A DNA stretch of 64,000 nt. It comes from Chiloscyllium plagiosum. Taxonomy: Eukaryota. Position 1 is the stretch's first letter. Each line of letters starts with the position of its first letter. The stretch covers positions 67,052,732-67,116,731 of the forward strand of contig NC_057718.1 of the NCBI RefSeq assembly GCF_004010195.1. The letters are read 5' to 3'. The translations under genes and the position numbers were made by a program. Positions 17,741 to 48,943 of the stretch are shown in pieces. Below the pieces are notes generated by a model that had not been told where the DNA came from, searched no databases, and saw only the letters and a list, made by a program, of their open reading frames with translations.

Positions 17741-17849
17741 AGCTACACATGAACATTGCATGAATGTTTACTACTTCATTTCTTCCTTGAGGAACTAACA
17801 TAAGTATCCAAGCCCAGCAATATCTTAGAACTCATCTGTTAGGATTTTG

Positions 17850-21325: not shown

Positions 21326-21405
21326 CTGGAAAAGCACAGCTGGTCTGGCAGCATCCGAGGAGCAGGGGAATTGATGTTTCGAGCATAAGCCCTTCATCTG
21401 GAATG
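21326..21405 (-). mobile_element. PLE terminal fragment with degenerate hammerhead-like motif
   Basis: gaaaagcacagc..gcatccgaggagcagg..tttcgagcataagcccttcatc. Confidence 0.75.
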
Positions 21406-21409
21406 TTGG

Positions 21410-21985: not shown

Positions 21986-22239
21986 TTGAAAGCTATCATA
22001 CAAATATTCTGAGCACCAATCTATCAACTAATTAGGTTTGCTATGAAATAAAACAAAGATCTGTGGATACTGGAGATTTGAAACAAAAATAGAAGGTGCT
22101 GGAGTTCTGTTGAAGAGTCACTGGTCTTGAAATGTGAACTGTTTTCTCTGCATAGATGGTGATTGACCAGCTGAGTTTCTCCAGGACTTCCTGTTTTTGT
22201 TTCAGGTTTTCAGTTATATCGCTTTCCAGTCTTTCTGTA

Positions 22240-22500
22240 TCACCAAGGAAGTACTCGTCGCTATGCTATTGCCTGGTAACCCCAATGAGTTCTACATGGC
22301 TCAGATGGAAGATATGCAGGTTAGGTGGATTGTCCGTGCTAACTTCCCAGGGATGTGCAGGCTCAGTGGGTTAGCCATGGTAAACGTGGTTGTGGGGTAG
22401 ATGGATTTTGGGAGGATGCTCTTCGGAGGATTGGTGCAAACTTGATGGGCTGAATGGCCTCCATCTGCACTTTAGGGATTCTATAGTTCTGTGATTCTAA
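22240..22500 (+). mobile_element. Degenerate HE1-type SINE
   Basis: gatatgcaggttaggtggatt...ggcctccatctgcactttagggattctat. Confidence 0.7.
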
Positions 22501-22512
22501 ATCCTTGCCATA

Positions 22513-23085
22513 AAGTCATAGAGTCATACAGCATGGAAATAGACCCTTTGGTCCAACCTGTCCATGCTGAACATAATCCCAAACTAAACTTGTCCAACCT
22601 ATCTACTCCTGACCCACATCCCTCCAAACCTTTCCTATTCATGTACTTATCTAAGTAGCTTTTAAACATTGTACCTGTGCTTGCATCCATTACTTCCTCA
22701 GGAAGATCATTCCACATGTGAACTATCCTCTGTGTAAAAAAATGCCCCCATGTCTTTTTAATCTCTTTTCTCACCTTAAAACTATGCCCCCAGTTAAGAA
22801 ATTTCCCACCCCAAGGAAAAGACATGTAACATTAATCCTATCAAGACCCCATATGATTTTATAAATTTCTATAAGGTCAACTCTCAACCTCCTACACTCC
22901 AGTGAAGAAAGCCTCAGCCTATCCAGCCTCTTCTTATAGCTGCAGCCGTCCTTTCGCAGCAACATCCTGGTAAATCCCTTCTGAACTGTCTCTAGCTTAA
23001 TAATATCCTTCCTTTAACAGGGAGACCAGAACTGGCCACAATACTCCAGGAGAGGACTCACCAATGTCCTGTACAACCTCAACTT
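22513..23085 (-). mobile_element. CR1 3' fragment
   Basis: RRLRVDLIEIYKII, FFTQRIVHMWNDLPEEV and (ctatgact)n tail. Confidence 0.85.
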
Positions 23086-25087: not shown

Positions 25088-28042
25088 CCGAGCAGAGACT
25101 GTTAGCCAAGTTAGCTCTGGGACTAACTAACAACATAGGCAAAGCTAGGGTGGAGGACCTGTTTGGGGATTATCGAGCACGAGGAAGGAAAATGAAGTAC
25201 AGTTCCTCAAAGTTCATAATCTCCGGATTACTGCTCGAGCCACGTGCCAATTGGCATAGGGATAAGAAAATTAGGGAAGTAAACACGTGGCTAAGGGATT
25301 GGTGTGGGAAAGAGGGATTCCACTTCATGGGGCATTGGCATCAGTTTTGGAACCGTTGGGATGGTCTCCACCTGAACCGATCAGGTACCAATGTTCTAGC
25401 GAAGAGGATAAATAGGGTGGTCAGTAGGACTTTATACCTGAATGCTCGTAGCATTCATAACAAAGCAGACAAACTAATGGCACAGATCATCGTGAATGAA
25501 TCTGATGTGGTAGGCATCACAGAGACGTGGTTACAGGGGGGTCAGGACTGGCAGTTAAACATCCAAGGGTTTTCAACTTATTGAAAAGACAGGGAGGTGG
25601 GCAGAGGGGGCGTGGTTGCCTTGTTAGTTAAGAACAAAATTAAATCTATGGCACTGAATGACATATCGTCGGATGATGTGGAGTCTGTGTGGGTGGAATT
25701 GAGGAACCACAAAGGCAAAAAAACCATAGTGGGAGTTATGTACAGACCTCCTAACAGTGGTCAGGACTAGGGGCGCAACATGTACCGGGAAATAGAGAAG
25801 GCATGTCAGAAAGGCAAGGTCATGGTGATCATGGGAGACTTCAATATGCAGGTGGACTGGGTAAATAATGTTGCCAGTGGATCCAAAGAAAGGGAATTCA
25901 TGGAATGCTTACAGGATGGCTTTTTGGAACAGCTTGTCATGGAGCCCACAAGGGAGCAGACTATTCTGGACCTAGTACTATGTAATGAACCAGACTTTAT
26001 AAAAAATCTTAAAATAAAGGAACACTTATGAAGCAGCGATCATAATATGGTAGAGTTCAGTCTGCAGTTTGAAAGAGAGAAGGCAAAATCGGATGTAATG
26101 GTGTTACAGTTAAATAAAGGTAATTATGAGGGCATGAGAGAGGAACTGACGAAAATAGACTGGAAGCAGAGCCTAGCAGGGAAGACAGTAGAACATAAAT
26201 GGCAGGAGTTTATGGGTAAAATTGAGGACACTGTACAGAGGTTCATCCCCAAGAAGAGAAAGATTATCCGGGGAGGGATTAGACAGCCATGGCTGACAAA
26301 GGAAGTCAGGAAATCTATCAAAGAAAAAAAGAGATCCTATCAGAAGATTGGGAAGGCTACAAAAACAAACAGAGGATAACAAAGAGAGAAATAAGGAAGG
26401 AGAGGATCAAATATGAAGGTAGGCTAGCCAGTAATATTAGAAATGATAGGAAAAGTTTCTTTCAATACATAAGAAACAAACGACAGGCAAAAGTAGACAT
26501 TGGGCCACTTCAAACTAATGCTGGAAGCCTAGTGATGGGAGATAAGGAAATAGCAGGAGAACTTAACAAGTACTTTGCGTCAGTCTTCACAGTGGAAGAC
26601 ATGAATAATATCCCAATAATTAACGGGAGTCAGGGGGCTGAGTTGAGTATGGTTGCCATTACAAAAGAGAAAGTGCTAGAAAAACTAAAAGGTCTTAAAA
26701 TTGATAAATCTCCTGGCCCTGATGGATTACATCCTAGAGTTCTAAGGGAGGGGGCTGAGGAAATAGCGGAGGCGTTGGTTGAGATCTTTCAAAAGTCACT
26801 GGAGTCAGGGAAAGTCCAGGATGTTGGGAAGATCACTGTTGTAACCCCCTTGTTCAAGAAAGGATCAAGGCAAAAGATGGAAAATTATAGGCCAATCAGC
26901 TTAACCTCGGTTGTTGGTAAAATTCTAGAATCCATCATTAAGGATGAAGTTTCTAAATTCTTGGANNNNNNNNNNNNNNNNNNNNNNNNNNNNNNNNNNN
27001 NNNNNNNNNNNNNNNNNNNNNNNNNNNNNNNNNNNNNNNNNNNNNNNNNNNNNNNNNNNNNNNNNNNNNNNNNNNNNNNNNNNNNNNNNNNNNNNNNNNN
27101 NNNNNNNNNNNNNNNNNNNNNNNNNNNNNNNNNNNNNNNNNNNNNNNNNNNNNNNNNNNNNNNNNNNNNNNNNNNNNNNNNNNNNNNNNNNNNNNNNNNN
27201 NNNNNNNNNNNNNNNNNNNNNNNNNNNNNNNNNNNNNNNNNNNNNNNNNNNNNNNNNNNNNNNNNNNNNNNNNNNNNNNNNNNNNNNNNNNNNNNNNNNN
27301 NNNNNNNNNNNNNNNNNNNNNNNNNNNNNNNNNNNNNNNNNNNNNNNNNNNNNNNNNNNNNNNNNNNNNNNNNNNNNNNNNNNNNNNNNNNNNNNNNNNN
27401 NNNNNNNNNNNNNNNNNNNNNNNNNNNNNNNNNNNNNNNNNNNNNNNNNNNNNNNNNNNNNNNNNNNNNNNNNNNNNNNNNNNNNNNNNNNNNNNNNNNN
27501 NNNNNNNNNNNNNNNNNNNNNNNNNNNNNNNNNNNNNNNNNNNNNNNNNNNNNNNNNNNNNNNNNNNNNNNNNNNNNNNNNNNNNNNNNNNNNNNNNNNN
27601 NNNNNNNNNNNNNNNNNNNNNNNNNNNNNNNNNNNNNNNNNNNNNNNNNNNNNNNNNNNNNNNNNNNNNNNNNNNNNNNNNNNNNNNNNNNNNNNNNNNN
27701 NNNNNNNNNNNNNNNNNNNNNNNNNNNNNNNNNNNNNNNNNNNNNNNNNNNNNNNNNNNNNNNNNNNNNNNNNNNNNNNNNAGAACAGAAATACGGAGAC
27801 ATTTCTTCAGCCAGAGAGTGGTGGGACTGTGGAATTCATTGCCACAGAGTGCAGTGGAGGCTGGGACGCGAAATGTCTTCAAGGCAGAAATTGATAAATT
27901 CTTGATGTCACAAGGAATTAAGGGCTATGGGGAGAATGCGGATAAGTGGAGTTGAAATGCCCATCAGCCATGATTGAATGGCGGAGTGGACTCGATGGGC
28001 CGAATGGCCTTACTTCCGCTCCTATGTCTTATGGTCTTATGG
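25088..28042 (+). mobile_element. CR1 LINE (ORF1 esterase C-terminus, endonuclease, RT; contains a gap)
   Basis: WDGLHLN, YLNARSI, VGITETWL, GDFN, KSPGPDGLHPRVL, NYRPISLTSVVGK and (tcttatgg)n tail. Confidence 0.93.
26966..27781. other. Assembly gap
   Basis: Run of N. Confidence 1.
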
Positions 28043-29502
28043 ACTCAAGAGTGGGATAAGGACAGACCTCACACCTTTAATGCATTGTCTGAGCTGAGAT
28101 GTCACCTTTCATTTTAAAACCTTAAGTTATCTTGAGAAAGTTCTGGGATTTACATATTAAAGAAGCAAAACCAGAAACCCATTCTAAAAGATGAAAAACT
28201 TAACAAACTAGGTTTGTTCAATATATCATTTCAGTTCCATGAGACTGTAATCTTTTGCTATAAATTCTGTGTCTTATGGTCCTGCGTCACAACCAGGATG
28301 ATGAAGAAGCAGCGCTTTGAAAGCTAGTGCTTCCAAATAAACCTGTTGTTGTGTGATTTTTAACTTTGTTTACCCCAACACCAAATCATGGCTCTAATAC
28401 ACTTCCATGTTTACAAAAAGCAATGCCACAAAATCGAGGAGTACTATTCAGTCAATCTTCATTTTTTAATAGAAGTTCCATCTCTGTTAATGCCTGCCCG
28501 CCCAAGCAGCAACTTTTTGCTTTTAACTGGCAGCAGACTGCAAATTTCTCTTTTTTTGGCTGCCATGACATATGATAGGATGAGCTGTTCGGCAACAAGT
28601 ACTTTCCTTTCTGATCATGGCTCTTGAATTCCTTTTCCATCTCATCATGTGGGAATTTGACAATTTTAGTGCATTTAAATCAAGTTTGTACTGAGTGAGT
28701 TCACTAACGAATAGTTCTGGGGTTCTGAAGAACAGTCATGCTAGACTTGAAAAATTAACTTTGTTTCTTTCTACACACATGCTGGCAGACCAGTTTATTT
28801 TAGATCTCCAGCATCCATTGTATTTTGCCTTGCTTAGACTAACAGCTATCTTATTAGCATTTATTTTGTTTTCAATATGGCATAATCTTGGTATAGAATC
28901 AATTTCTAGAACATCAGGAAAATATCAGTCAATTTGGTAAAGCTCAAGGGCCATTGTAATGTTAGAGTATGGTACAATAATACAATTTGACTTTAAAAAT
29001 GCCCATCCACAATAATTTTACATGATAAACTCAGATGTTAGTGGTCTTCTGATTTTGATTGAAATTTCCATTGTAACCTAAATTCATAAAAGTTTTATTT
29101 ATGTCTGTTGCTAGTATGAGTATTAATGCTTGTTTTCTTAATTGATATATTCGAGGCAACTATTCCACTAAATGAAATAATTTAGGTGCATATTTTCCTT
29201 CTTGTGCTGAAGTTTCTTTAAAATTATTTGATGATAATGTTTACAATAAATCCAAAGTAATGTTTGGCAGCATTAAATATATGTTGCTTGAATGCAAAAC
29301 AGTATTTAAACAACTAAATCTTTTTTTCCTGCATGACGGCTAAATTATTCGGAAGAAATTAAATAGTTGCACAGCAGAAATCTGAAGTCTCCAAATTATT
29401 TGGGAAGCAAAACAAATTGGTAATTATAACTGTTTTTACAAGACAATAGAATTTAAATACAATAAAACATAAATATAGTTCTGCATTATAAAACATATTG
29501 CA

Positions 29503-30925
29503 ATTTGTGTGTGGAGCCACAGAAAATGGGGAATCCTGGACCATAAGACACAGAATTTATAGCAAAAGATTACAGTCTCATGGAACTGAAATACTAAATG
29601 AGTATTTTGCATCAGTATTTACTGTGGAAAAGGATATGGAAGATATAGACTGTAGGGAAATAAATGGTGATATCTTGCAAAATGTCCAGATTACAGAGGT
29701 GGAAGTGCTGGATGTCTTGAAACGGTTAAAGGTGCGTAAATCCCAGGACCTCATCAGGTGTACCCGAGAACTCTGTGGGAAGCTAGAGAAGTGATTGTTG
29801 GGCCTCTTGCTAAGATATTTGTATCAAAGATAGTCACAGGTGAGGTGCCGGAAGACTGAAGATTGGCAAACGTGGTGCCAATGTTTAAGAAGGGCGGTAA
29901 AGACAAGCCAGGGAACTATAGACCGGTGAGCCTGACCTCGGTGGTGGGCAAGTTGTTGGAGGGAATTCTGAGAAACAGGATGTACATATATTTGGAAAGT
30001 CAAGGACTGATTAGGGATAGTCAACATGGCTTTATGCGTGGGAAATCATGTTTCACAAACTTGATTGAGTTTTTTAAAGAAGTAACAAACAGGATTGATG
30101 AGGGCAGAGCAGTAGATGTGATCTATATGACACCAAAATTGGAGGTGTAATGGACAGCGAAGAGGATTACCTCAGATTACAACAGGATCTGAACCAGATG
30201 GGCCAATGGGATGAGAAGTGGCAGATGGAGTTTAATTCAGATAAATGCAAGGTGCTGCATTTTGGGAAAGCAAATCTTAGCAGGACTTATACACTTAATG
30301 GTAAGTTCTTAGTGAGTGTTGCTGAACAAAAAGACCTTGGAGTGCAGGTTCATAGCTCCTTGAAAGTGGAGTCGCAGGTAGATAGGATGGTGAAGAAGGC
30401 GTTTGGTATGCTTTCCTTTATTGGTCAGAGTATTGAGTACAGGAGTTGGGAGGTCATGTTGCGGCTGTACAGGACATTGGTTAGGCCACTGTTGGAATAT
30501 TGCATGCAATTCTGGTCTCCTTCCTATCGAAAAGATGTTGTGAAACTTGAAAGGGTTCAGAAAAGATTTACAAGGATGTTGCCAGGATTGGAGGATCTCA
30601 GCTACAGGGAGAGGCTGAACAGGGTAGGGCTGTTTTCCCTGGAGCGTCAGAGGCTGAGGGGAGACCTTACGGAGGTTAACAAAATTATGAGGGGCATGGA
30701 TAGGATAAATAGACAAAGTCTTTTTCCTGGGGTGGGGGAGTGCAGAACTAGAGGGCATAGGTTTAGGGTGAGAGGGGAAAGATATAAAAGAGACCTAAGG
30801 GGCAATTTTTTCACGCAGAGGGTGGTACATGTATGGAATGAGCTGCCAGAGAATGTGGCGGAGGCTGGTGCAATTGCAACGTTTAAGAGGAATTTGGATG
30901 GTTATATGAATAGGAGTGGTTATTT
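29503..30925 (+). mobile_element. CR1 LINE fragment with an internal RT deletion and a 55-bp foreign insert
   Basis: NYRPVSLTSVVGK and SQHGF, ORF 30150-30932. VDVIYM is joined directly to the DDTK region at ~30130. Confidence 0.92.
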
Positions 30926-32394
30926 AGCCTGAGGGTCTGATGCCTCAGGTGAAGAGCTATGTTAAGTAGGAGAATCCTTCATAGTAACCTCAGCCAGTCC
31001 ATGTTTTTGACATCATTCTGCATTGCAAACCAGCTGTCCAATTCTGCTGTCTTCATCATAGTCCTCATCACAATTTCCTTTCATTATATCCTGCAAATAT
31101 AGAGTTATTATTCTAACATGGCTCTGATGATGAATCAACTAGACTGAAAACACTGGCTTGCTGTCTCTCCATGGATGCTGCCTGACCCGCTGTGATCACC
31201 AGCATTTTTTGTTTTTAGTTGAGCTTGGTCTCCACAGTGCAGGAAGGATGAATAGTCTAGTTTTATTTTGATGGTCTTGTCCTTGTTGTGTGCTAATTTT
31301 ACTCAAACCTGTATTCTTTCCTGTTAGAAGAAACCAATGACACCACTCGAGATTACTCCACTCCTGCTCATTTACTGGGAAATTTAAATCAGGGACACAG
31401 ACTGAATTGTATGAGATATATGATCAAAAATAAGTACCATTTTACAATTTCCCAGGTGCAGGTTTCTTAACAGGAGGAGAGCAGGTGATGCCTCTAAACA
31501 TTTGCATGGCTTTCAACTTTAAAGTTGGCAGGTGAGGTCTGAGCCACTTAATTATTCATCACTTATAACCACTTCCCAGCCCAATCCTAATTTCTCAGCT
31601 CACAGGAAGAGGTCAGGGATTACAGAAACTTGACAACATAATATTTTTGGGCATCTCACTAAGAAGTGAGATACTCTTCCTTCAAGGGTCTCCTATTCTG
31701 AGGATAACCCCTCTCTCTGGGGTTTCCCTTCCATACCTGACCTTTGCACTTCAGTTCCTGCTTGCTGTCTCCACCCCTCCTTCTGCCCTTCTTCAAGACT
31801 GAAAGTATTCTCAACTGAGACACCAATTCTATTGGTCCTGGTAGGAACAAAGAGCTACCAATAAATCAGATAGCCAGCAGTTCTTGGAGCCTGGCTTTCC
31901 TACCCAGTGGGCTTGGAAAACCCACCTTGAGATAACAATACTCCTTGGTAATAAATGATTGGGGGCACAGAGTTGGGGGATGGGGGAAGAGTGTGATACA
32001 CCTGTGCAAAAGAAGTGGTCTTGAGGTCTCTACCAACTTGTTTGGAAGCCATAAACTAACTAATTATTGTTCATTAAATGGTCTCCCACAAGTTAAAAAG
32101 TTGTAATTTAAAGGAGGAAGCCAATTTAAAGAATGTTCTTCCAGTATTATATTCTAACAGATATTCTGAAATGTACTTCGCAATAAATTAGACAATACTT
32201 TTATTTGCAGAGGGACACAATTTCAGATCTCATTTTTATCAAGTGATGTGTGGCTGGTAACTATTGTTGGAGTAAACCAATAACTGCCATAGGTTGTAAG
32301 CAATCCATAGCTCCCAGCTTGACCAATTCTAGGTATCGAATGAAAGGTGGAAGCCATCAATTTAAACCAAGCACGCAGTGTTGAACTATATAAA

Positions 32395-32490
32395 AGGTAA
32401 AAACAACGACTGCAGATGCTGGAAACCAGATTCTGGATTCGTGGTGCTGGAAGAGCACAGCAGTTCAGGCAGCATCCAAGGAGCAGCGAA
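32395..32490 (-). mobile_element. PLE 3' terminal fragment
   Basis: gactgcagatgctggaaaccagattctggatt..gtgctggaagagcacagcagttcaggcagcatcc. Confidence 0.75.
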
Positions 32491-32757
32491 ACCTCGATCA
32501 TCCAAACATAAATTATCCAAATTTCGGATCATTTTAACAAGATCTTAAGGTCTCATAAAAATGGAATTAGGCATCTCAGCATTCAGTTATCAGTTAAATG
32601 GCATTGTGGCGTGCATTGCTGGATAACTGAGAAATGTTCGCATAACCAGCACTCTTAAATTACTGCTTGTTTACAATCAGATTGATTATTCGAATGATCA
32701 ATTATCTGAACAAAATATTCCCCACCCGTCTCATTCAGATAATCGAGGTTCTACTGT
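32490..32757. mobile_element. Tc1/mariner (Tigger-like) MITE, left end clipped
   Basis: Inverted ends aacctcgatcatc / gataatcgaggttctactg with internal ttatc(c/t)gaa repeats. Related to 52173-52330. Confidence 0.6.
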
Positions 32758-34894
32758 TTTCTATTTTCTTATACTTAAACACCAACATGAGTAGTAATTA
32801 CTGCAGAATCTGTTCCGTACCTTTGATGAACTCATGTTACAAATCCACTATGAGTGTTCATTGAAATCACAGGAATACATTGTGATATTGCACAATAAGT
32901 TGGTAGAAAACTCTGGAAACAGGTCAAATGATCCTTTTTTAAAAAAATTGTGTTAATATAGTTTAATTTGTAATTAATGAAAGCTAGTTCAATCCCCTAA
33001 GTTGGTATAGTTTTTTTATTATTGAGTTTACAATTCACTGTGAAAGTTGTCTTTTAAATTTACTCTTCAAGCTTGACTATAGCAATAAGTAGTTTGTTCA
33101 AACACTTACATCAATCCAGCTTTCAATCCATGCATACGACTTATAATGCATGAAAAGACATAGAATGTAGACATGGAGGCAAGGAGACACAAGTTGGTCA
33201 ATCTCTCCCAATCATTGTGCAGCCATGATTTTAGATCTACCAAAGTACTTTCTTTAACCTTATTACTATAAACAAAGTGCAAAAATTTACCAAGTTCTTA
33301 AAATTTGAGAGACTGATTTGCTCACTTTTTCAGTATTTCATTCTTAACAATGTATCTCTGTCAGGAGAACAAAGTTATTTTATCAAATTGTGTGCTGATC
33401 TCATAGGCAATGAGTTAATGGAGATATGTGATTAGTTTGAATTTATAGGGGCCTGAGTGATGTGGACTATGGTGAAATTTGTGACAGAATTGGACAAAAA
33501 ATCCGGGAAGGCTTACCTCAGTGTTGCGTGCAACTCACTACAACTTATGATTTTGACAAGCAGTGAGGCAAGTTTCTCAAACAGCAACAGAAATTGCTGG
33601 AGAATTTCAGCAAGTCTGCCAGCACCAGTGGAGAGAAAGCATAGTTAATATTTTGAGTTCAATGACTCCTTCAGAACCACAAATTCCATGCTAACCAGTG
33701 ACAAGTTGCCAGTTAAGCTGTTTGTCAATTGCCTCATTAATGCTATTGAAAAATTTTGAAATGAAAATCAGAGTGGATATCTAGCAGCTGCAGCTTACCA
33801 TTGGCCGTAAAGAGCATCTATGTTGATTAGCACCAAACAAATCGCACAATCCACAGGCATCATCCATGCATATTCTTCATCAAGGCATTTGCCAACCCCT
33901 CACAACCATCATGACTCCTTCTCAATCCTCTTGTAGGCTATTTTAGAGGCACAGACTTGCATTGTGGGATACACCAACAACTAAGGTTGCAGTAGAGACA
34001 CTTACTCACTGGAATAGGCAGATAGCTCACAGGTTGGACAAGGCTGCATTTCAGAGCTGTCACTTACTCTCTTAGCACTCGCTGACCTGGCACCTGTTTC
34101 ATACTCACAGTATCCATGCCTTGCTTTGCCTTTTAATACCATGCCTGTTAGTGTGTTGGCACTTCAGCCAGAGTTAACAGCAAGCAGTACTGCCATTCTG
34201 CACACACATGCATAAGGGCTGCTTGGCATGGTTGTGAGTAGGAATCTGACCAGGGCTGGGACAGCTTGATGTGTGACACATTGAGATATCAGTTTAAAAC
34301 CTATAATATGTGCACCTGCCTGTGCAGTATGCATTTCAAACATTTATTCAACTAAATGGCCATATCAGAAACTGGGTGGGGGCTAGTCCTCAGTCCAGAT
34401 AAGGGGGTGCAATTGTTAGCTGAGGAGTCTGAGCACTGTCAGTTAGGGACACAGTCTGTACACAGTCCAGGGCTTGGCAACAGTCATCAGCTTGAGACAC
34501 TCACCATCAAAGATCAGTCTTAGTGTAGTGAACATCACTTTGTTCAGAACCAGCAGTTAGGAGAGTCATATCTCACCAGACAGGGAGCTGCAAAGAGAGC
34601 AGTCAAGAGTCTGTTTAATCACGTATAGGAACTTCCTCAACCCATCAGAAGTCTGAGGAGAATGCAGACTTGAGTACCCATCTGTCAATCATTAAGGAGG
34701 GTGGAAGGGACGGCCTTTAGGTGCTGGGGGTCAAAAGGTGGTGGAGATTCAAGGTTGGGGAGGGTGAACATGGAAGCTCTGAGCCTGTACCTGGTAACTA
34801 AGTGGAGTGCAGTGCTGACGTGTCTACAGTGAGCTGCATTCCCTGCAATCACTTGCTGTTCTCTAGATGTGAAATGCAACTGAAAACTCTAACT

Positions 34895-35255
34895 CAGCTA
34901 TATAAAATTAGGAGAGGTATAGATAGGGTAGATTGTGAGAATTTTTCCCATGGCAGACATGTCTAAGACCAGACACTGTAAGTTTAAGGTGAGGAGTAAG
35001 TGGTTTAGAGGGGATCTGAGAAAAATATTTTCACACAGAGTGATAGAAATATAGAATATGCTGCCTGAGAAGGTGGTTGAGACAGATAATCTCGCAATAT
35101 TTAAAAAGCATCTGAATGATTACTTAAAATGCCAGGGCTTACTAGGAAATGGAACAACTGCAACCAAATGGAATTACTGTGGTATAGTTTGGTGTTTTTG
35201 GTCATCATAGAAATGGTGGGCCAACGGGCCAGTTTTTATGCTGTTTGACTCTATA
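34895..35255 (+). mobile_element. CR1 3' remnant
   Basis: tttaaggtgagg..tttagaggggatctgag..ttttcacacagag and a CR1-type 3' UTR. Confidence 0.7.
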
Positions 35256-35789
35256 AAGAGTGGTGTGCAGAGTCTGTGTCATTTTGATGGGTGAAATCTG
35301 GAGGTCCACGTTTACTGGATGTCAGGATATAGAAGGGACAAATAGATAAAGAATGGGTTTGTAAACTGCCGCTACATTTCACTTGCAAACATTTCTTTAT
35401 ACAAATGTAATATATACAGAGTGAACATGCTTATGCATCAAATATTGCTCGAATGTGCATTGCATCACGTTAGCTAAACTAACATGGTCACCTTAGTGAT
35501 GTAGAAATTTTCCACAAAAACTAAAGAAGAGGTGAATGCTGTCCAAAACCTCCCTATCCATTGTCAAATTTCCAACGTTGCTGTGAACCAAGGAGATCTT
35601 TACTTCACCATATGTCACCTAAGTGTGACTATGGACTCCAATGAACACAATGGAAAGTGAAATTGTTGATGTGGGTCAGGAATGGAAGGAAGTTTGGAGC
35701 TCAACAAACATTCCCTTTTGGATGTAATACATTGGTCATTCAGTCAGTGCAGCATCTTTGGCAAGTTGGTGACATATTGTGGAGCAGAC

Positions 35790-35910
35790 AATAGTTCCAC
35801 TGAAGTTGTAGTTCCACAGCTTGAACAGTCTAGGGTGCTGCCCAGTATAGCCTAGAGCTTCACTATCCTGGTCTGCCATGTTATGTACAATTGACGTGCG
35901 CAGCAAGGCA
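35790..35910 (+). mobile_element. Possible Harbinger transposase C-terminal remnant
   Basis: GAAQYSLE..ILVCHVMYN resembles the GALQYSP..IVVCC.LHN end of HARBI1-type DDE domains. Confidence 0.4.
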
Positions 35911-38549
35911 ATGTGATAATTGCTGAGGATTTGGGGAAGAGAGCAGTCATCTGAAGAGAAGGATGAACTAGGTGTAACTCTCTTTGTGGTGACAGAGTTT
36001 AATTGTACTGGGCACTACATGGCAGCCCATTAGATGTCAACTATGTGCAGAAGACCATCATGGACAATTATGGTTAAGTTGCCAGCATTTAGTTCTCATT
36101 GTAGGTGTGAACTGCAGCCTATATTTGTTTCCTTTGTATTTTCTTTTGCTGGCTATCAATAAAAGCTTGTATTTAGATATGTCCAAACACCTGCCTGTAT
36201 ATGATGTTCTCATAATGGACAATAACAAGGTACAGGTAAGCACTAGGCATTGGGGAAAGATAAAGGGATGCAGATAAAGTGTGTAGCCTGGTTGTTAAGT
36301 AATGAACAGGCAGAAAAAATATGTTTGCATGTGCAAGGGAGAGTCAGCCGTGGCAATGACTTGGTTTTGTGACTGTTGTGGCATTACGCAGCTGATGAGG
36401 GGTGTTGCTGTATTGCCAATGCTTATATGTGTTTTTTAAACATGGCATGTGTGCAAGAGTTGCTGGGCCCTTGATGGATATGTGTTGAATGGGAAGTTTT
36501 TCTGGGAATGGTACATGTGGCTAGAATCAAATGTGAGGGATACCATTGGGACTGGATAGGTAGTTAAAAAGGTGTGTTGGTAAGATATGGTGAGACATCT
36601 CATTACATCACAAGTGAGACTCCTTCCAAAAAATGCAATGCAACTCACACTGAGCCAAAAAATGTAAGATTTACCTCTACATTTCCACAAGCAGTGAATG
36701 TGTTCTATTGGTGCATAAAAACCTCAGTATTTTACTGAATTCAATCATGATTTTAAATCTTTTGATTAACTCAATTAAAATCACTTACTAGGACATCCGT
36801 ATGGTTCAGATTGTAAAGAGTCTTGGTCAGATCCCATCACTGAATTATGTCCAGTTATGGTCACTGAAACTCAGGAAGTATGTATTAATCTAGGGACAGA
36901 CAATAAATATTGGCTAGCCAGTGATGTCCACAAATAAATTTTAAATCAATTTAGTATAATGTAGATTTACCAAAATGATACCAGATCTGAAATTATGATG
37001 AAAGGTTGAATAATAATGGATTGCATTCCTTAGTGGATACACAATTGTGAGATGTTCAAATTAAGATGCATAAAATTATAAAACAATTCATTGAAGTAAA
37101 TATAGGTTACAGTTTAAATATTCTGAAAATTGTTTCATGTTCTGATTAGTATAAAATTAGAAGTTTAACTTTTCAAAGAAATTGTACATGCATTTTTTAA
37201 TAAATTGTATATCGGCCTTAAAATTACAGCAAAGGATACAAATGTACATGCTTATTTTGAATGCATTCTCTTCTAACTGGCATTTAAAAGATTTGAAAGA
37301 ATGGAATAATTATTTCTACTAAAATAGTATATAGAGGGAAACAGACCATAAACATTCATTTATAATGGCCATGGTTTTACCAAAATTACAAATTGTTTTT
37401 TATATTAAAAAGCATTTCTTTGTTTAATTGAGTTTCCTCTAAATCTAGGTCAATGACACATACTTCACATGTTTATGTACTTTTCAGTTTTGTAATTGAC
37501 AGATTAGTTTTATAAAGAAGGTTCTTTGCCTATGCAATGACAGTTACTCCAAAGTTAAGACTTCGTTGTATGGAGTACTTTTAGATGTTTTTGTTATGTC
37601 TTCTGATTTCTACAAGTCTGAAATATAAGACCCTTAAAGATAAAATTATCTGCAACTTTCTTCAAATGTATTTCACATATCTCACTATGCTTTGCAGACT
37701 AACACACCACTGTTCAATATCCTGACTATAGTATAGCAGTGAGTGATGTGGTATCTGCATACTTATGTATGCATATGTTTGAATGCATAATTTAAACAAA
37801 TACAATAATATAACAATTTTAATGAGAAGATGAGTCATGCTCTATTTCAAGTGAAGCATAGAACATGGATTCACATTCAAATATCTTTGCTCAGAAAATA
37901 GTTGTTTTGAATTGTTATGTAATTTAAGAATTTATGTAATAAACTTTGAATGCCTTGATCAAAGAGGTCCAAGGACCTAATCACTCACTCCTACATATAA
38001 ATCATTCATAAAGATATTGGAAGTAATGAACAATCAAGTTGTATTACTATTACAAATACAAATGAATAACCTCAATGGAAATGTTAATTGAAATGCAATG
38101 TCTGCATTGTAAAAAAGAATGAGATAAGCTGGTTTGGTTGCCTTCTCTGATTCCTCATTTGCAATATTCTGAGACTTTAAGATGTTTCCATGGACCTTTG
38201 CTTCTTTTTCTCTACAATTATGCTGTTGCCCTATAAAGAACCCATGAATTTTGTCAGAAATCTGTTGTGTCAATTTTAGCAAGATTCATGGATAGTCTCT
38301 GCCTGTGAACAAGATTTTCACACTGTTCTCTGAAACATGCCTCTATTACCAATGCACCAGATCTCAATGGTGCTTTGCTCTTCCTTGTCTCCAGAGGGAT
38401 ATACTCACCACTATTGGGATCTCCTTGGATTCCCGTTGCTGGCGCCATAATTAAAATGCAGCTGTGCATTGGGATAAGTGGTATCATTCTAAAGCTGTCC
38501 TGCATGAATACTATGAATTGCCAGGAGATAGTAGACAGAGTAAAGATAT

Positions 38550-39145
38550 TCCCACAGTTTGCTAGGGACCTGGAGGTCCTGATGTACTGAGTAGTACAGA
38601 GTAAGACCATCCTCTTCCCTCAGGACCAATAGGTAGCACCACCAGACCTTGCCAGCCTGGTCTGAAGTTGCCATCGAGGTTAAAGCTATGTAGAAACATC
38701 CATCTAAGTCAGAAGAAGGTCAGTAAGCTTCTCGACTCTGCAAAGAATTTCAGGCTCATGATATATTTCATCATCTTCTCTCTGGCATCTTGCACTTACG
38801 CTAATTCTATACCAACTCCCACCAGGGCTGATGGTGCACCCCTCATGCTATTCATCATCTTTCCTCACTCACACTCACCCACTTAATGTCCCCACCCACT
38901 TAACATCCCTGTTTGCTTTCTGTGTGCCTATGCAGTAACTCAGGAAACCTCCCCACTTCTCCTCCAACCTGCACTAGCATTAATAACTGTGCCAGACACT
39001 TTCATCTCACTCAGTCTCTCTCTTTATTCCAGTGCAGGTAAAACAGCTGACAATGTGGCTGAAAAAGCCATGACAGGTGGTTCACTTCCTGACATTCATG
39101 TCCTCACCCCCTTCGAAGAGAGTATCCTTGCCCTGGGAGAGAACT
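38550..39145 (+). mobile_element. Harbinger Myb/SANT-like gene relic in two exons
   Basis: PQFARDLEVLMY*..ILFPQD..PAWSEVA..QKKVSKLLDSAK, then after an acceptor near 39037, KTADNVAEKAMTGGSLPDIHVLTPFEESILALGE. Contains stops and frameshifts. Confidence 0.65.
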
Positions 39146-40074
39146 GTAATTATTATATGCATTGATACTGAAATGTCCACATTTCTCACAGACCCACTAA
39201 TGTCCATATCCTTCAGAAGCTGGGAGAATTTTGCCCATCCAGACAGTGTGACATTTTTCAAACAAGCACATCAAACAGCATAGACATGGTTCAGGAAACT
39301 ACTACCTACTTCCAAATAAAAATGAAATTGAATATGATGTAACATTCTAATATATAAAATATTAGGTTATGTACATATATAGCACATATCATATTGCTAA
39401 TTTAGTACAGAATGATTTTGCAAGATTTAGGACTATTTATGGATCATTTACTGATCTCAGATTAAGCAAATGTTTTTGTAAAATTACAACAGAAAACAAA
39501 ACTCAAAATAGCTTTCTCATATTATATCAACTTCTTTAAAATTGGAAATGCAACAACTGTAACGTCTTTATTGTTCACAATTCATCAGTCATATTCAATA
39601 GTGAATTACCAATATTACCAGACTTAGCAATAATATCAATGTCATCAGGTCTTAAAACTCGTTGGCAGTACTGCTAGAACATATTTGAATGATCACTCAT
39701 CAACTGATGCAGAGTCTTCTTTACAGAATTTTCACTTGCCTAGATTGTTTCTCATCAGAGAACATAAAGACTGAAAGAACTTGCAACTATGAAAAGACTT
39801 TTGTCCGGAAGTGTTTTACAGCTAATGAGTTACCAATGAAATGTATCATGAGTCTGAAATTCTTCTTATTTTTGGTATAATCAAGGCAGCAGAGCACACA
39901 AAGACTTATAGTACTCACAAATACTAAGTATCAAGAAATTAGAGTCATCTCAGGACTGGAGATGGAGATGACAGAGAAAGTCTAATCTTGTGAGCTGCTA
40001 AAGATTTTGGATTTTTGTTCATTTGAAAGTCAAATATCAAATGAAGTGTTCAGTTTCCATTCTAGAGATCTACA

Positions 40075-40365
40075 GTGGATAAGTGGCAGCTACAAGACAG
40101 GTGTGGAAAGCAGGACTTATATCTCAGCTTTTCAGATCTTATGGAAACATTCTACATCATCAGTAGATCAGGACTCGACAAGCTGATGGACAAAATTGGC
40201 TGTCCAACAAAGTTCATCAGTCCCATCTGTTCTTTTTAATCGCAACATCACTGTACAAATTAATGCAATCAATTCCAACAATGTCAAAATGAAGAGAAAA
40301 CATGGCTTTGTCTAGCCCCATTTTATTTTAGTATTTTCTTCTTTATGGCCCTGACATTTGCCTTT
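40075..40365 (+). mobile_element. RTE-clade LINE RT remnant
   Basis: WQLQDRCGKQDLYLSFSDLMETFYIISRSGLDKLMDKIGCPTKFI, followed by a LAPILFSIFF motif. Confidence 0.65.
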
Positions 40366-40409
40366 TCTGCAAATGTGAAAGGGTTCTACACATACAAGCT
40401 TTACAATCT

Positions 40410-42713
40410 CTCCAGGAAGTGAAGAATATGCTGGATGAAATTTACACAGCTACGAATACTGTGAAGATAAAATTTCCTGAGGCCTTATTCACCAACCAGG
40501 CCAACTTCAAGGGTATGCTACAAAAATATCACCATGTCTCCTGACTCACCAGTGAACCGAACATCCTTGACCATTGCTACACAATCTTCAAAGATATCCT
40601 ACCACTCCATACCCCGATAACACTTTGGAAAATCAAATCACAATGCTGTGTTCTTCCTCCCAGTTTACAAGCAGAAGTTGAAATGAAGGGACCCCTCACA
40701 GAAAGTAACACAAAGCTGGTCTGAGGCAGCAGAAGAGCTTCTCAGGGACTGCTTGAAATTGGTGGACTAGACCATATCCAAGTATTCAGCAGACAACCTT
40801 GATGAGTACGCCACCACTGTCACAGACTTCATTAGCAAATGAGTGGAGGATTGCATGTCAAAGAATTCAATCCACGTGTTTCCCAACCAGAAACCTTGGA
40901 TAAACCAGGAAGTCCACTGCTTACTGAAGACCAGGCATGTGGCATTCAATTCGGACGACCCCGATTTTAGCAGGCAATCCATATACAACCTCCGCAAGGC
41001 CATCAGAGATTCTAAGAGGCAGTACCACACCAAATTAGAGTCCCAAACTAACCACATGGACACCCACTGCCTGTGGCATGGACTACACGACATAACGGGA
41101 TACAAACTGAAGCAGAACAAAATAGTGGACAAAAACACATCCCTCCCTGATACACTCAATGCTTTTTATACACATTTCAAGCACCCTGTCAGTGGTGCAG
41201 TGTCATCTTCCCCAACAACCTCAGACGCACTTGTTCTCTCTGTCACCGCTGCAAATATCAGGTCAGCCTTCTCGAGAGTGAGTCTGAAGAAAGTGACTGG
41301 CCTCGACAAAGTCCCCAGCCATGCACTCAGAACCTATGCGAACCACCTGGTAGGATTATTCGCTAATATCTTTAATCTCTCTTGCTACAATCTGAAGTCC
41401 CCATCTGCTCCAGGGAAACCATCCATCAGCCCAATACCAAAGAAGACAGATGCAACATATCTCATTGACTATCATCCTGCGGTTCTGACCTCCATCATCA
41501 TGCAGTGCTTCAAGAAGTGAGTCATGGCTCACATCAATTCTAACCTCCAAGGTTGTCTAGATCCCTTGCAATTTGCCAACCAGCATAACAGGCCCACAGT
41601 GGATACCGTTTCCCCAGCCCGATACTCACCTCTAGAACATCTGGATAATAAGGGTACCGATGTCAGGCTCCTACATATCAACTAATCCCAAACAAGTTAA
41701 TCTCCAGACTCTGAGACCTAAGTCTTGGCTCACCCTCTCTGCAACTTGATCCTCAGCTACCTGACTCACAGACCACAATCAGTGAAAATAGGCAATAACA
41801 CCTCCTCTGCGATAATTCTCAACACCGGTGCTCCACAAGGATGCGTTCTGAGTCCCCTACTGTACTCCCTGTACATTCACGACTGTGTGGTCAAATTTTG
41901 TATGAATGCCATCTACGAGTTTGCTGATGACACCATCAGTGCAGGCCGGATATCAAACAATGATAAACTAGAATAGAGGAATGAGATACATTACATGGTG
42001 TCAGCAAAACAAAAGAACTGGTCATTGACTTCAGAAAGAAAGGAGAAGGACACACCATTATCTACATCAACGGAACTGAGGTGGAGAAGGTGGAGAAGTT
42101 CCTCAGTGATGAGAACCAACAATCTGTTCTGGACCTCCCATTTAGATATGGCAGTCAAGAAGGCACAACAATGCCTCTTCTTCCTCAGGAAGCTTAGGAA
42201 ATTCAGCACGTCCATAAGAACCCTCACTAACTTTTACAGATGCACTGGAGAAAGCTTTCTATCTGGGTACATCATGGCTTTGTGCAGCAACTGCTCTGCC
42301 CAGGACCGTAAGCAATTACAGAAAGTTGTATTCATAGCCCAGACCATCACAGAAGCCAACCACCTATCCATGGATTTCATCTACACTTCTCATTGCTGTG
42401 GAAAGGCTGCCAACATCATCAAACACACTTCCCACTCCAGTAGTATTCTCTTCCAACCTCTTCCGTCAGCCAAAAGATACAGAAACTTAAACACATGTGC
42501 CAACAGGTTCAAAGACAGCTTCTTCCCTGCTGTTATTAGATTGCTAAATAGATCTTCCTAATTTCAAATCTAACATTGATCTTGCTTTTGTGCACCTTCT
42601 GTGCAGCCATAGCCTTGTATGCCTCACTCTGTCGAAACATCTTATGATCTGTTTGTCCTTGTATGTTATGATCTTCGTGCACTGCTCGCAAAACAAAACA
42701 ACAATAAATCAAA
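40410..42713 (+). mobile_element. Rex1/Babar LINE, 5'-truncated and decayed
   Basis: [64 protein letters not shown] and acaataaatcaaa end. Confidence 0.9.
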
Positions 42714-42904
42714 GACTGATAGTGAGATAAAAATATTGCCCATCTTGAGCAGAGACAAAGAAATACTATGATATTTCTGTGAGGTACTGCTATACTGATG
42801 ATGCATTAGTCAACTAGATGAAAGCTCAGTGACACATAGATTGTCTCTTAATTAATTCACCATGGGACGCTAGGATATTATTCAATTCTTGCTGCATTTG
42901 AAAA

Positions 42905-44845
42905 AGGACTGCTTCAATATTTGAGGAGTCATGAATGTTGCTAAACATTGTGCAATCATCAGCAAACATCCCCATTTCTGACCTTATGATAAAGGGAAGG
43001 TCTTTGATGAAGCAGCTGAAAATGGTTGGGCCTGGACACTAACCTGAGGAACTCCTGCAGAGATATCCTGAACCTAAACCATCTTCCTATGTGCCAAGTA
43101 TGACTCCAATTAACAGAGAATTTGTCCTCTAATTCCCATAGATACCAGTTTTGCTGGAGCTCCCTGATACAACACTTAATCAAATGCAGCCTTGATGTCA
43201 ATGGCTGCCACTCTCTACTCATTTCTGGAATTCAGCTGTTTTGTTCATGTTTGAACCAAGGCTGTAATGAGCTCAGGAGCTGACTGGCCCTGGCCAAACC
43301 CAAGCTAACAACACTGAGCAGATTATAACTGAGCAGGTGCTGTTGTTGACATCTTCCATCACTTTAGTGATTGAATATAGACTGATGGGTTAGTAATTGG
43401 CTGGTTTGGATTTGTCCTGCTTTTTGTGTTTAGTACATGCATAGGCAATTTTTTATATTGTTGGCTAGGTGCCAGTGTTGTTACTGTATGGAACATCTTG
43501 GCAAGTTGTAAAACACAAGTCTCCTGTACTTTGCAGGAATTGTTGCCAGGGCTACAACCTTTGCAGTATTCAGTGCCTCCAACGGTTTCTTCATATCATG
43601 TGGAGTGAATGAAATTGACTGACTGAAGACTGGATCTATAATGCCGGAGACTACTTGGCACTTGTCGTTGAAGATTGCTGTAAATGTTTCAGTTTTACCT
43701 TTTGCAGTGATGTGTTAGGCTCTTACTTCTTTGAAGATAGGGTTATTTGTGAAGCCTTCTCCTCCAGTGAGTTGTTTAATGTCCACCATCATTCATGACT
43801 GGATGTGGAAGGTCTGCACAGTTTCACCCTCATCCATTGGTTGTGGAATCACTTAGCTCTGCCTATCGCTTGTGTGTTTTTGCTGTTTAGCATGCAAGTA
43901 ATTCTCTACAGTAGTTTCACCTTATTTTTAGGTATGTCAGGTCCCATTGCTGACATGCCTTCCTACACTCTGTATTGACCAGAGTTGATCCCTGGCTTGA
44001 TGGTAATGGTTGAGTAAGGAATATGCTGGCCCATGAGATCACTATGTGCTGGAGTACAAGTCTATTGCTACTGAGGGCCCACTGTGTCTCATGGATGCCC
44101 AGACTTGAGCTGCTAGATCTGTTCAAAGTCTGTCCCATACAGCACCGTGATAATGCCACACAACACAAAGGAAATTATTCTCAATGTGAAGGTGGGGCTT
44201 CATCTTCACAAAGACTGTCTGGTAGTCACTCTTACTTATGCTGTCATGGACAGATACATCTGTCAGACCTAGTCTAGCAGTTATGTCCACTGGAACACGA
44301 CCAGCTCAATCAGCAGTGCTGCTGCCGAGCCACTCTTAGTGGAGAAAATGGAAATTCCCCACCCAGAGTGCATTGTGTGCCCTTGCCAATGCTTCTTCCA
44401 AGTGTTGTTCTACATTGAGGATTACTGATTCATCTGCCAAGGCAGGATGGTATGTAGTAATCAGCAGGAGGTTTCTTTGTCCATGTTTAACCTGAAGCCA
44501 TGAAACTTCACATGGTCTGGAGTCAATGTTGAGGACTCCCTCCTGATGGAAAACCACTCTGCCAGATCTGCCCTGACTTTGGTGGGCGTCTGATGGTGGG
44601 CGTCTGAGACTCTCTGTAAGATACAATTCCATGAATATGATTGTATCAGGATGTTGCTTGACTAGTTTGTGTGACACCACTACCAGTTTTATCATTACAC
44701 CCTGGATGTTAATAAAGAGGACTTTGCAGTGTGAACAGGACTGCTTCTGCTGTTGTCTTTTCTGATGCCTAGGTTGATGCCAAGTGGTCTGTCCAGTCTT
44801 ATTTCTTCATTGAGAATTGTCACAATTTGCTGAATGGCTTACTAG
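42905..44845 (-). mobile_element. CR1/L2-group LINE (same family as 12030-15560), including endonuclease
   Basis: Minus EVSWLQVKHGQRNLLLITTY..EQHLEEAL..LWVGNF. gttcctcagg..gtgtccaggcccaacc and gggatgtttgctgatgat RT motifs. Confidence 0.82.
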
Positions 44846-45082
44846 GCCATTTCAGAGGGCAATTGAGAGTCAACCACATTGCTCTGGGTCTGGAGTCACA
44901 TGTAGGAGTCCACGTGAGGATAGCAGATTTCCTTCCAATTAGTTTTTCCTGGACATCTAACAATAGTTTATAGTCATCAGTAGATTCTTAATTTCAGATA
45001 TTTTTATTGAATTCCAAATCCACCATCTCCCATGGTGGGAATTGAATGCAGATTCCTAGAACATTAACTGAGTTTTTGGATC
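44845..45082 (-). mobile_element. Deu-domain tRNA SINE (SacSINE1-like) abutting the LINE 5' end
   Basis: ggccatttcagagggc..agagtcaaccacattgc..ctggagtcacatgtagg, with a B-box-like attcaattccc on the minus strand. Confidence 0.65.
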
Positions 45083-45115
45083 AAAGATTTCAAATTATTT
45101 TCTTTTCTCTTGTAG

Positions 45116-45321
45116 AAATGAGTATCCTAACAGATGAAAAAAGGGAAGTCACTGTGACAGCTCTTACACCTTGTAAATTCTATACCATTTCAAAGGAAGA
45201 TTTTAATGCAACATTGGAACAATTTCCAAAGATGAAGGAGCATTTTGAAAAGGTTCTCTTGGCAAGGCAGGAATCAATATCCCAGCGATTGATTTTAGAG
45301 GAAACATCATCTGTTGAATGA
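45116..45321 (+). CDS. Terminal coding exon of a divergent HCN-like channel (C-terminal half of the CNBD)
   Basis: Acceptor ttttcttttctcttgtAG at 45114-45115 with phase-1 start (G|AA = Glu). Peptide EMSILTDEKREVTVTALTPCKFYTISKEDFNATLEQFPKMKEHFEKVLLARQESISQRLILEETSSVE* aligns without gaps to HCN [56 protein letters not shown] (about 22/56 identical by eye). The intron position matches the FG|E junction of vertebrate HCN genes. Stop TGA at 45319-45321. Confidence 0.82.
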
Positions 45322-46194: not shown

Positions 46195-48943
46195 TCCCCA
46201 GCTTTGGTGAACAAAATAACTGTGTTCCATAAAAGAAATTTTCCAGTACTTTCTCCCAAATTCTGCAACTCTCACTCCCTTCACCCCACCAACCCACCTC
46301 ATAATGAGGCAGTGCTTGTCTTTTGCTGAGTTCAGTAAGGCCGTGTGCCCATATACACCAACCAGCTGTGTTTCATACGAGCAGCAATGTTTCTGTTTGT
46401 TCATTATTGTGCTTGAAAATCATAACTGGTTCCATTCCCTTTCAGCTCTTACCTGTTGTCGCTCTAAGAGACTGAATAGGATGGTGCACTGTCAACAGGT
46501 GATGTCACAATAATTTTTGCAAAATAAGTAACTATAATCCTTCGTATTCAATTTCTTGAAGAAGCAGCAGCAAATTATATAATATATATGTAAGAGCAGA
46601 TCCAATTTAAGTTAAAAAGGAAAATGAGTCAGGACTGTTACTGGTAGGAGTAGGACTGGCATATAGAAGAAGAAAACCAGAGAGGCATTGAGTGGATCAG
46701 AAGGGCATCAGCATGAAAGAGGCAAACAGAACCAGCTTCAGCATTAACTATAAAATGAGAAGGCAAGTTTGCCAGCATGACTTGAGGGAAAAAGAAGAGT
46801 TTGGGAGGTTGTGATAGTGCCAGCATGAAACAGATTTCCAGCATGTTCTGGGTGGAAAGGTGAGTAGTTTGCTGGCACAGACTAAGGTAATGGCAGAAAA
46901 GAAGGATGGAGCTTGAACTGTGAGGAAGATTGAAGAGTGCCGACGTAAATCTTAGGGTGATAGGAAAGAAGATGCCTGCTTTAATAGTGAGAGGAAAGAA
47001 ATTCATCTGTGCTACCCTGATCAACAGAAAAGCAATTCTAAAACAAAAATAACATGAGAACATACAAAAACATTCTCAACATTGCTTTCCATTTAATCAT
47101 AATCCAACCTTTCAGAAGTAGTCAGTTGGAGGCAAACTACCAGTACTGGGGTGAAGGAACTTGGGAATAGATTAAGGGTCAAACTATTGGTCTTTGACAC
47201 TGTTAATTGTATGCATAATAGATGAGGTAAAATGTATTTTAAGTCAATTTCATTGTTTTTGGTTTAAAGTTCCGTTATGCACATTTGTGGGGAGATGTTG
47301 CGGTAATGTTGCTACACTAGTAAGCCAAAGAGTCAGGCTAATGCTTTAAGGACCTGAATTCATAGTCCCATGGCAGTTGGTAGAAATGCCTCAGCATTGA
47401 AAGTAGCCTTGTTAACTATTCATTATTAAAACAAAAATAAATGCAAATATGAAACCTTGTTTGTTTAAACTTAGGTAAATCCCAATGTATTTATTTACAG
47501 TTTCTGGATACAATACCACAAGATGCCCCTTAGATTATGATCGCCTTAGAAACTGATAACCTCAAAACAAAATAAAAATGATAATTTTCCCAGCCTACGA
47601 ATTAGTAAAGAAGAAGAATTCATAGACTCTTACTGTTGCATACAATCTAAGGTAAAAATAGATCAATCACAAAACACAGGCAACTAATGAACCAAACTAA
47701 AGAAAAGGTAGTTTTGCATTAATTAAATAACACTCCTAAGGTATCCCTTATAACCCCTTTTATTGACTTCTGTACTCCTGGTAAGTCTAGACCACATGTT
47801 CAAATCCAAAATTACTCTGGGCTCTACAACAGGCTTACAATCCCTCTTATGGCAGGTTGAAACTTTCAGTGTCTTTCAAAAATCAATTCATCTTCCAGAT
47901 CCAATCTCTACCAGCAAGATCTAGCATGATGCTTACCCAAGTATCCTGTCTGGTTAGTAACACAACTTTCCTTTTCTGCTCTTCACAGCAATAGTTCCTT
48001 TGTCTTTATTTGTCTCAGAAAACAGCCATCCCTTTTTTGAGTTAATGTGTAAATTTGTAAAATCATTCACTTGATTTTAGTAATATTCTGTTTAAATTTC
48101 TTCCTTTTGATTGTCTTCAGATGGAGATGTTTAATATGACCTCATCATTTCCTTTTCTAAAACTTCTGTTTCAACTTAATTTAAAGAAGATATTTTAAAA
48201 CATTTGTAAGAAGTAGGTTTGCTGGCACACAGAGGCTGCGGGGGGCCACGCGATTCCTCAGACATGTCACTGACAGAACAGGTCGAGAGGAGGATGTACA
48301 TCATATTCCACACAATTAAAGGGTGACATCTCACCATTCTATTTCTATCTCCTAATGCAGCTTGTGGTATTCTGCCTGGTCTCATATTGTCCTTCCATTC
48401 CTCTCCAAAGATTCTCCTAGAAAATGTCCCTGGCCAAGCAATCTGCTTCTTCAGGTCATTTTTGTAAAGTGTCTACAAAAGGCAAAGCAGCCCAATGCTT
48501 TCTCTTTTTAGGTGAAGAGAATTTGCTTGAGTATTGGTGAACTCTTACAAACTGCACCAAAACAAATCCCCTAATGTGATCCAAAGGTTATCTTCACTGT
48601 CTCAAATACAAAGGCACATGAAATGGTAATTTTTTTTCAGAAATACTTGAAATTCATATCACTACTTTGTTTATTCCCAAACAGCTAGTCACTCTTACGA
48701 GAGATATTAATATCAGTCCTAGCCACCAAACTGGCCTGCAGTCGGTTTAGGTAGCAATCACCCCTTTAGTAGCTTCCAGGCAGCTATTCCTAACATGTAA
48801 ATATGTCCTCTTTTGTGAAACATCGGCTAAACTAACGTTCCAGCTCAGGAGCTCACCTTCACCAGATAGATCAAGTAGATTTTTAGTGCCTGAATGTGAT
48901 GCCAAAAATTATCCACAAAGTGACTGAGGAGTGGAACAGTGTA

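Follow-up and report, generated by a model that had tools for sequence, protein, structure and literature searches.

The closest described relatives of the gene reported here are the classical pacemaker channels HCN1-4 and HCNL1/HCNL2, the hyperpolarization-activated proton channels of fish (Wobig et al., 2020; PMC7306766). HCNL1 is a pacemaker-channel scaffold turned proton channel, a change that has been ascribed to freshwater life in a family found only in fish. According to the available text of the same paper, S4 position 3 is Met in HCNL1/2, and the 49 HCNL orthologs described are all from fish, fall into two groups and all carry Met; an entry of the second clade discussed below may be among them (PMC7306766). 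The literature also describes mutations at several sites of such channels. Both R591 and T592 of HCN2 bond to the phosphate through their side chains, and T592 also bonds N2 of cGMP; the exchange T592A raised the cAMP Kd from 0.09/1.39 to 0.61/11.8 uM, i.e., lowered the affinity about 7-9-fold, and raised the cGMP Kd from 0.36 to 184 uM (PMC6785730, Table 1). In HCN1, F186 forms a hydrophobic plug and S272 sets the gating polarity (PMC6904216). The plug exchange F150A alone gave no closed-state leak in Hv1, whereas double changes or F150D leaked (PMC6754559), and alteration of the first Gly of the GYG filter silenced Kv and HCN4 pores (PMC7306766).

Some proteins that we assign here to a second HCN-like clade are already deposited in databases under automatic "HCN1/2/4-like" names. 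In our literature search, which covered papers outside subscription, no publication dealt with a second HCN-like clade or with chondrichthyan members, and no protein of this "HCN1/2/4-like" set was characterized; in the available text of PMC11700363, the words "shark" and "cartilaginous" are not mentioned.

The window, that is, the whole 64-kb stretch of shark contig C9 that was analyzed, contains the last coding exon of such a gene; besides this exon 10, no other exon matches of the orthologs were found within it. The features are as follows, all on the plus strand:

1..45115, plus strand: the final 45 kb of intron 9 (144,205 bases as a whole), from the gene model.
45090..45115, plus strand: pyrimidine tract and AG acceptor (AG at 45114-45115) of phase 1, splitting the Glu of FLG|E, from the sequence.
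45116..45321, plus strand: exon 10, the terminal coding exon, with the end of the phosphate-binding cassette, the B and C helices, a short tail and TGA; residues 485-552.
45142..45150, plus strand: Arg-Glu-Val in place of HCN Arg-Thr-Ala (R591-T592 in mouse HCN2), with Arg at 45142 and Glu at 45145.
45265..45279, plus strand: C-helix Arg (place of R632, 45265) to Ile (place of I636, 45277), from the ortholog alignment.
45280..45321, plus strand: 12 more codons and the stop, past the position of the last HCN intron, from the sequence and the ortholog alignment.
47425..47576, plus strand: candidate poly(A) signals ATTAAA (47425), AATAAA (47436) and AATAAA (47571) from a motif scan, their use being putative.

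The exon is real, as the first-pass annotation had read from the letters. Two bases (AA) close the Glu codon and are followed by an open frame of 67 codons (45118-45318) that ends in TGA (45319-45321). Residues 1-35 of the peptide matched the Pfam domain cNMP_binding with an E value of 1.2e-5, just under the cut-off. The closest solved structures were the binding domains of HCN1-4, aligned without gaps over residues 3-57 (E ~1e-6), which bears out the gap-free match to the HCN binding-domain exon; annotated relatives were found as well. A search of the animal's own genome (3.56 Gb) with the peptide returned five matches: the exon itself and one each on C1, C12, C31 and C40. Three of these matches are classical HCN exons; compared with them without gaps, exon 10 was identical at 20, 21, and 21 of 54 positions (37-39%), whereas those three exons share 49-53 of 54 positions among themselves, which reproduces the earlier figure of about 39% identity against near-invariance within HCN1-4. 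The C12 exon is also divergent (26-27/54 to the classical HCN exons and 20/54 to exon 10). An AG|AA phase-1 acceptor is common to all four related exons. The phase of the intron shared with HCN was thus read correctly, but the motif is FLG|E and not FG|E with an aromatic pair. In the three classical exons, the codon following "RI" contains a GT donor; exon 10 has no donor there, and its frame runs past this position to a stop 12 codons on, as had been stated.

Two shark-type orthologs stop at the same aligned column as exon 10, and the skate ortholog stops six residues sooner. The idea of an "intrinsic ligand" in the short tail was dropped, since the tail sequence is not conserved. A fourth classical HCN has its N-terminal exons on the unplaced scaffolds G000:C86938 and C73254; its last binding-domain exon was absent from the own-genome matches of the exon 10 peptide. 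No read fell on the exon in runs X5, X6, and X7 over 44800-47800 (about 2% and about 6% of two raw runs sampled), a result that speaks neither for nor against expression; in X5, one or two partly fitting reads at 47426-47627, by the candidate poly(A) signals, are too few to carry meaning. The intron part of the window includes LINE-type fragments at 1374-1967 (minus strand), 13348-13830 (plus strand), and 41977-42558 (plus strand), with endonuclease, reverse transcriptase, and an ALKBH8_N-like stretch, and the window has N gaps at 4376-4451 and 26966-27781.

With annotated relatives as queries, the upstream exons that the first-pass annotation had wished to see recovered were found outside the window at G000:C9:66796854-66953641. 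Joined to exon 10, these nine exons give a 10-exon gene with a single open frame of 552 residues and GT..AG borders at all nine introns, extending over 301 kb from C9:66796854 to 67098052. The protein is 83% identical to P0050 (XP_038664312), which we take to be a catshark protein, 80% to P0007, and 76% to P0047 (XP_055495961), presumably a little skate protein, which clusters with an Amblyraja protein. Identity to the orthologs is even across the domains: among elasmobranchs, it amounts to 74-90% in the pore exon and 81-93% in S6, and residues 485-540 of exon 10 are 77-82% identical to three orthologs (69-77% for the exon 10 peptide against annotated relatives). In three of the four annotated elasmobranch orthologs, exon 10 is joined to exon 9; the fourth, P0008, ends in a different tail. 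Exon 10 closes an intact, conserved elasmobranch channel gene.

The phylogenetic position of the gene was established with a FastTree analysis of 65 rows and an IQ-TREE mixture-model analysis of 37 rows, hand-picked from about 230 proteins and two gene models, with redundant isoforms, fragments, and distant non-metazoan proteins left out. Both trees contained two HCN-like clades, A and B, set apart from HCN1-4. Clade A (IQ-TREE support 100/99) includes zebrafish HCNL1 (P0208), a Met-bearing teleost protein, sturgeon, Callorhinchus, and amphibian members, and a shark gene on C12. Clade B (100/100) includes the window gene and its elasmobranch orthologs, together with proteins of gar, Electrophorus, Alosa, Latimeria, Ambystoma, and other amphibians. 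The two clades were joined with a support of 100/99; the trees gave this joint clade no firm place relative to HCN1-4 and two invertebrate-chordate-like rows. The tree also indicates that the animal itself is a shark. Approximately unbiased (AU) tests rejected three arrangements: the group of the window gene together with HCNL1/2 (p 2e-42), clade B together with HCN1-4 (p 5e-4), and a duplication confined to sharks (p 6e-5), the groups having been chosen after the first tree was viewed, so that these p values are supportive rather than blind. The C9 and C12 genes share a 10-exon plan with nine identical intron phases. On the evidence of the trees, the window gene is a sister paralog of HCNL1/2 within the second HCN-like clade and not their ortholog. 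The earlier proposal of a chondrichthyan "HCNL-type or otherwise uncharacterised paralog" therefore holds as far as an HCN-like gene outside HCN1-4 is concerned, and fails for orthology to HCNL1/2, which is opposed by the AU test and by the lack of the S4 Met.

The surroundings of the gene are consistent with an old origin. Exons of TIAM, TFB1M, and NOX lie upstream of it on C9, an order that we assume to match human TIAM2-TFB1M-NOX3 at 6q25, which presumably belongs to the known paralogon with 21q/3q13/Xp. The only other PH_Tiam1 match in the genome and one of the two other NOX matches are located on C12, which accounts for 88 Mb of the 3556-Mb genome. C12 also carries the HCNL1/2 ortholog (G000:C12:48740879-48846670, L051-L061), modeled with a frame open over 500 residues. 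A POPDC match precedes this ortholog by 86 kb, and on its downstream side are matches to CFAP91, the gene with which the clade-A model of sturgeon is fused. As the TIAM and NOX paralogs and the HCNL1/2 ortholog are all on C12, the window gene and the C12 gene probably descend as a pair from a genome duplication early in vertebrate history. Against this simple picture, an Electrophorus model fuses a clade-B copy to TERF1, and the shark TERF1 matches lie on C4 and C17. No clade-B copy adjoining TERF1 was seen in this shark genome, and the tree is the sole basis on which the bony-fish members of clade B would be orthologous.

Scans for neighbors covered 77 candidates drawn from the window and its two flanks and, in a further round, 55 open frames chosen from 1157. 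In the 200 kb downstream (G000:C9:67116001-67316000), none of the candidate exons and longest frames tried had a Pfam match, and the window gene may lie at the edge of a gene desert. POPDC gave four matches of equal score with the same 341-residue frame (G000:C5:40183111, C12:18041746, C12:48655154, and C101772:13166); these are recent copies or assembly duplicates. The C12 gene has a long acidic 14-residue repeat in exon 1, uncharged S4 positions 3, 6, 7, and 8 (Y, Q, Q, and S), a plug Tyr, the filter GNSYG, and the pocket motif RKA. As an HCNL1-like proton channel of a cartilaginous fish, the C12 gene is a stronger candidate than the window gene.

The nucleotide pocket of the window protein combines retained and altered elements. 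The first-pass annotation had noted a change of RTA to REV, with the phosphate-binding Arg and the C-helix Arg and Ile kept. All of this is true of the window protein, but the orthologs agree only in part: among the four elasmobranch sequences having exon 10, Arg and Glu of the motif are universal, the next residue is Ala in three and Val only here (RE[A/V]), and the C-helix Arg occurs in three and the Ile in one. The phosphate-binding Gly-Glu is also kept in the window protein. Of 275 matches to the motif across the whole retrieved protein set, which is redundant, 195 have Thr at the Thr site, 46 have Val (largely invertebrate HCN-type proteins), and 8 have Glu, all eight being elasmobranch clade-B isoforms. 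In the other HCN-like rows, T, R, M, Q, I, K, L, or V was found at this site, and the phosphate-binding Arg is missing in three clade-B rows and in zebrafish HCNL1, so that the pocket has drifted repeatedly in this group. With the Thr site labile in both HCN-like clades, the change is less singular than the first-pass annotation took it to be, although Glu itself was seen only in the elasmobranch group. Since Glu loses the bonds made by Thr and adds a negative charge, cGMP binding would be gone and cAMP binding weak; the channel probably ignores cGMP and responds weakly, if at all, to cAMP. The altered cyclic-nucleotide sensitivity anticipated earlier is thus probable. Several points argue against a nucleotide-blind channel: the 46 motifs with Val mean that Thr is not required for cAMP binding, and the Gly-Glu, the phosphate-binding Arg, and mostly the C-helix Arg are retained. 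The literature search found no published Glu or Asp mutant at the HCN2 Thr site.

The voltage sensor and the pore, whose inspection had also been advised, differ from those of both HCN1-4 and HCNL1/2. The S4 helix is long, and its basic residues occupy positions 1-4, 6, 7, 9, and 10; position 5 is Ser, position 8 is Asn, and the Met is lacking. Position 3 is Lys in the window protein, K/R in 14 of 16 clade-B rows, and uncharged in 8 of 9 clade-A rows; position 8 is Asn or Ser in all five elasmobranch rows. The helix-break Ser, the C-linker, and the cyclic-nucleotide-binding fold are retained. The S2 plug is Ser, Thr, or Ala in 5/5 elasmobranch rows and Phe in all 11 other clade-B rows with S2. 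We assume that the Ser at S4 position 5 meets this plug in the hyperpolarized state, with which the titles of the HCN1 F186C S264C structure entries agree. Instead of CIGYG, the filter is CLDYA here and CLDY[A/G] in the five elasmobranch rows, all with Asp. The pore exon is as conserved as the other exons among elasmobranchs, unlike the drifting pore of HCNL1, which fits a working pore and argues against a route through the voltage sensor. An AlphaFold model of the ortholog P0050 has HCN as its nearest fold but is too weak for judging the pocket or the plug (mean pLDDT 62.6, pTM 0.39, with unreliable domain packing).

Two further observations concern these sites. The Arg at S4 position 8 is gone in both chondrichthyan HCN-like paralogs (L020, C9 exon 4; L054, C12 exon 4), with N/S in clade B and S, N, or T in clade-A chondrichthyans, while gar and sturgeon keep Arg; this may be a parallel loss or the ancestral state. 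The amphibian and coelacanth clade-B proteins P0234, P0033, P0024, and P0093 have the GYG-like filters TLGYG, TIGYA, SLGYG, and SVGYG, some with the Thr of K+ channels, and the clade may therefore include conducting members.

Taken together, the protein could be a hyperpolarization-sensing, nearly nucleotide-blind subunit that leaks ions through its voltage sensor rather than through the central pore, a mechanism to which we give about an even chance. With Glu in place of the Thr that bonds the phosphate and cGMP N2 through its side chain, the binding domain would fold but act chiefly as a scaffold for tetramer formation. S4 would still move on hyperpolarization, as it retains basic residues at eight positions as well as the helix-break Ser. 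The CLDY[A/G] filter would not select for K+, and, with the plug Phe replaced by Ser, Thr, or Ala, the Ser gap at S4 position 5 would open a leak for protons or cations on reaching the plug site, where the two would leave a polar gap. The absence of the HCNL1 S4 Met counts against this voltage-sensor route, as does the Hv1 exchange F150A, which by itself gave no leak. Alternatively, the same gene may conduct through the central pore, with a ring of four Asp passing Na+ and Ca2+ on hyperpolarization without K+ selectivity; this agrees with the conservation of the pore exon, S6, and the filter Asp, but it seems unlikely, as replacement of the first Gly silenced other pores, the second filter Gly varies between G and A among the five rows, and structure alone could keep the pore helices conserved. 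A little less probable is a non-conducting modulatory subunit that damps the current or the cAMP response of a classical HCN or of the C12 channel. In favor of this, the C-linker and the binding-domain fold are conserved in a protein with changes in the filter, the plug, one S4 charge, the nucleotide pocket, and the N-terminal HCN domain, and an HCN4 subunit with CISYG was dominant negative (PMC7306766); the putative partners, however, are only 35-40% identical.

It is also conceivable, if quite improbable, that the domain still binds cAMP usefully and has become cAMP-selective, with Glu turned from the phosphate or paired with a neighboring basic residue. The retained Gly-Glu, Arg, and C-helix Arg, the conserved exon 10, and the less than tenfold cost of T592A for cAMP (PMC6785730, available text) would permit this; the acidic side chain next to the phosphate, the non-conserved C-helix Ile, the three other clade-B rows without the Arg, and the nucleotide insensitivity of the sister HCNL1 (PMC7306766, available text) speak against it. 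The chance that exon 10 is an HCNL1/2 ortholog, an ordinary HCN1-4 exon, or an orphan pseudo-exon is very slight, even though HCN1-4 are the best structure and fold matches, the preceding intron is 144 kb long, and spliced reads were not seen. Orthology to zebrafish HCNL1/2 is contradicted by the AU test and by the separate ortholog on C12, next to CFAP91 as in the sturgeon model; an ordinary HCN1-4 exon by the tree and its AU test; and a pseudo-exon by the intact 10-exon frame and the annotated orthologs in which exon 10 follows exon 9. The identity of exon 10 and of its clade, in which our confidence is very high, is far firmer than the leak through the voltage sensor preferred above.

The HCN-like group thus comprises two lineages that are of the same age as the jawed vertebrates, and this shark carries both. 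Going further, we tentatively suggest, as a possibility that we hold to be on the doubtful side, that jawed vertebrates began with two HCN-like ohnologs besides HCN1-4, and that the elasmobranch copy of the second, unnamed one gained a voltage-sensor pathway independently of HCNL1, through loss of the S2 plug and not of an S4 arginine, together with an Asp-lined pore and a Glu-blocked pocket. If true, nature would here have produced a gating-pore channel built in a new way. The protein carries natural, conserved changes at three sites probed by mutation, namely the S2 plug, the first filter Gly, and the phosphate-cassette Thr, and is suited for testing how the HCN scaffold changes its ion route and second messenger.

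In comparison to HCNL1/2, to which it is related as a fully supported sister clade, the window gene has a similarly short C-terminus, a non-GYG filter, and an altered nucleotide pocket. It differs in the Lys at S4 position 3, in the lost plug Phe, and in its location by TIAM-TFB1M-NOX rather than POPDC-CFAP91; compared with HCNL1 itself, it keeps the phosphate-binding Arg, its pore sequence and filter replacement are conserved among species, and its core is only 28% identical to that of zebrafish. Without the S4 Met and outside HCNL1/2 orthology, the analogy with the sperm proton channel is a lead and not a result. With classical HCN1-4, the gene shares the six-helix channel, C-linker, and cyclic-nucleotide-binding domain, the intron at the place of FG|E, a long S4 in which position 5 is Ser, the helix-break Ser, and the top sequence and fold matches. 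It differs by an identity of only about 40%, by CLDY[A/G] instead of CIGYG and RE[A/V] instead of RTA, by the missing plug Phe and S4 position-8 Arg, by extra introns in S1-S4 and the pore, and by the absence of the last intron and the long tail. The clade-B "HCN1/2/4-like" proteins of gar, sturgeon, Electrophorus, Alosa, coelacanth, and amphibians form one clade with the window gene (gar being 45-46% identical), but the plug Phe persists in them and, mostly, so does the charge at position 8; their filters are TLNYG, TLSYG, SLGYG, or T[LI]GY[GA], and gar keeps RTA.
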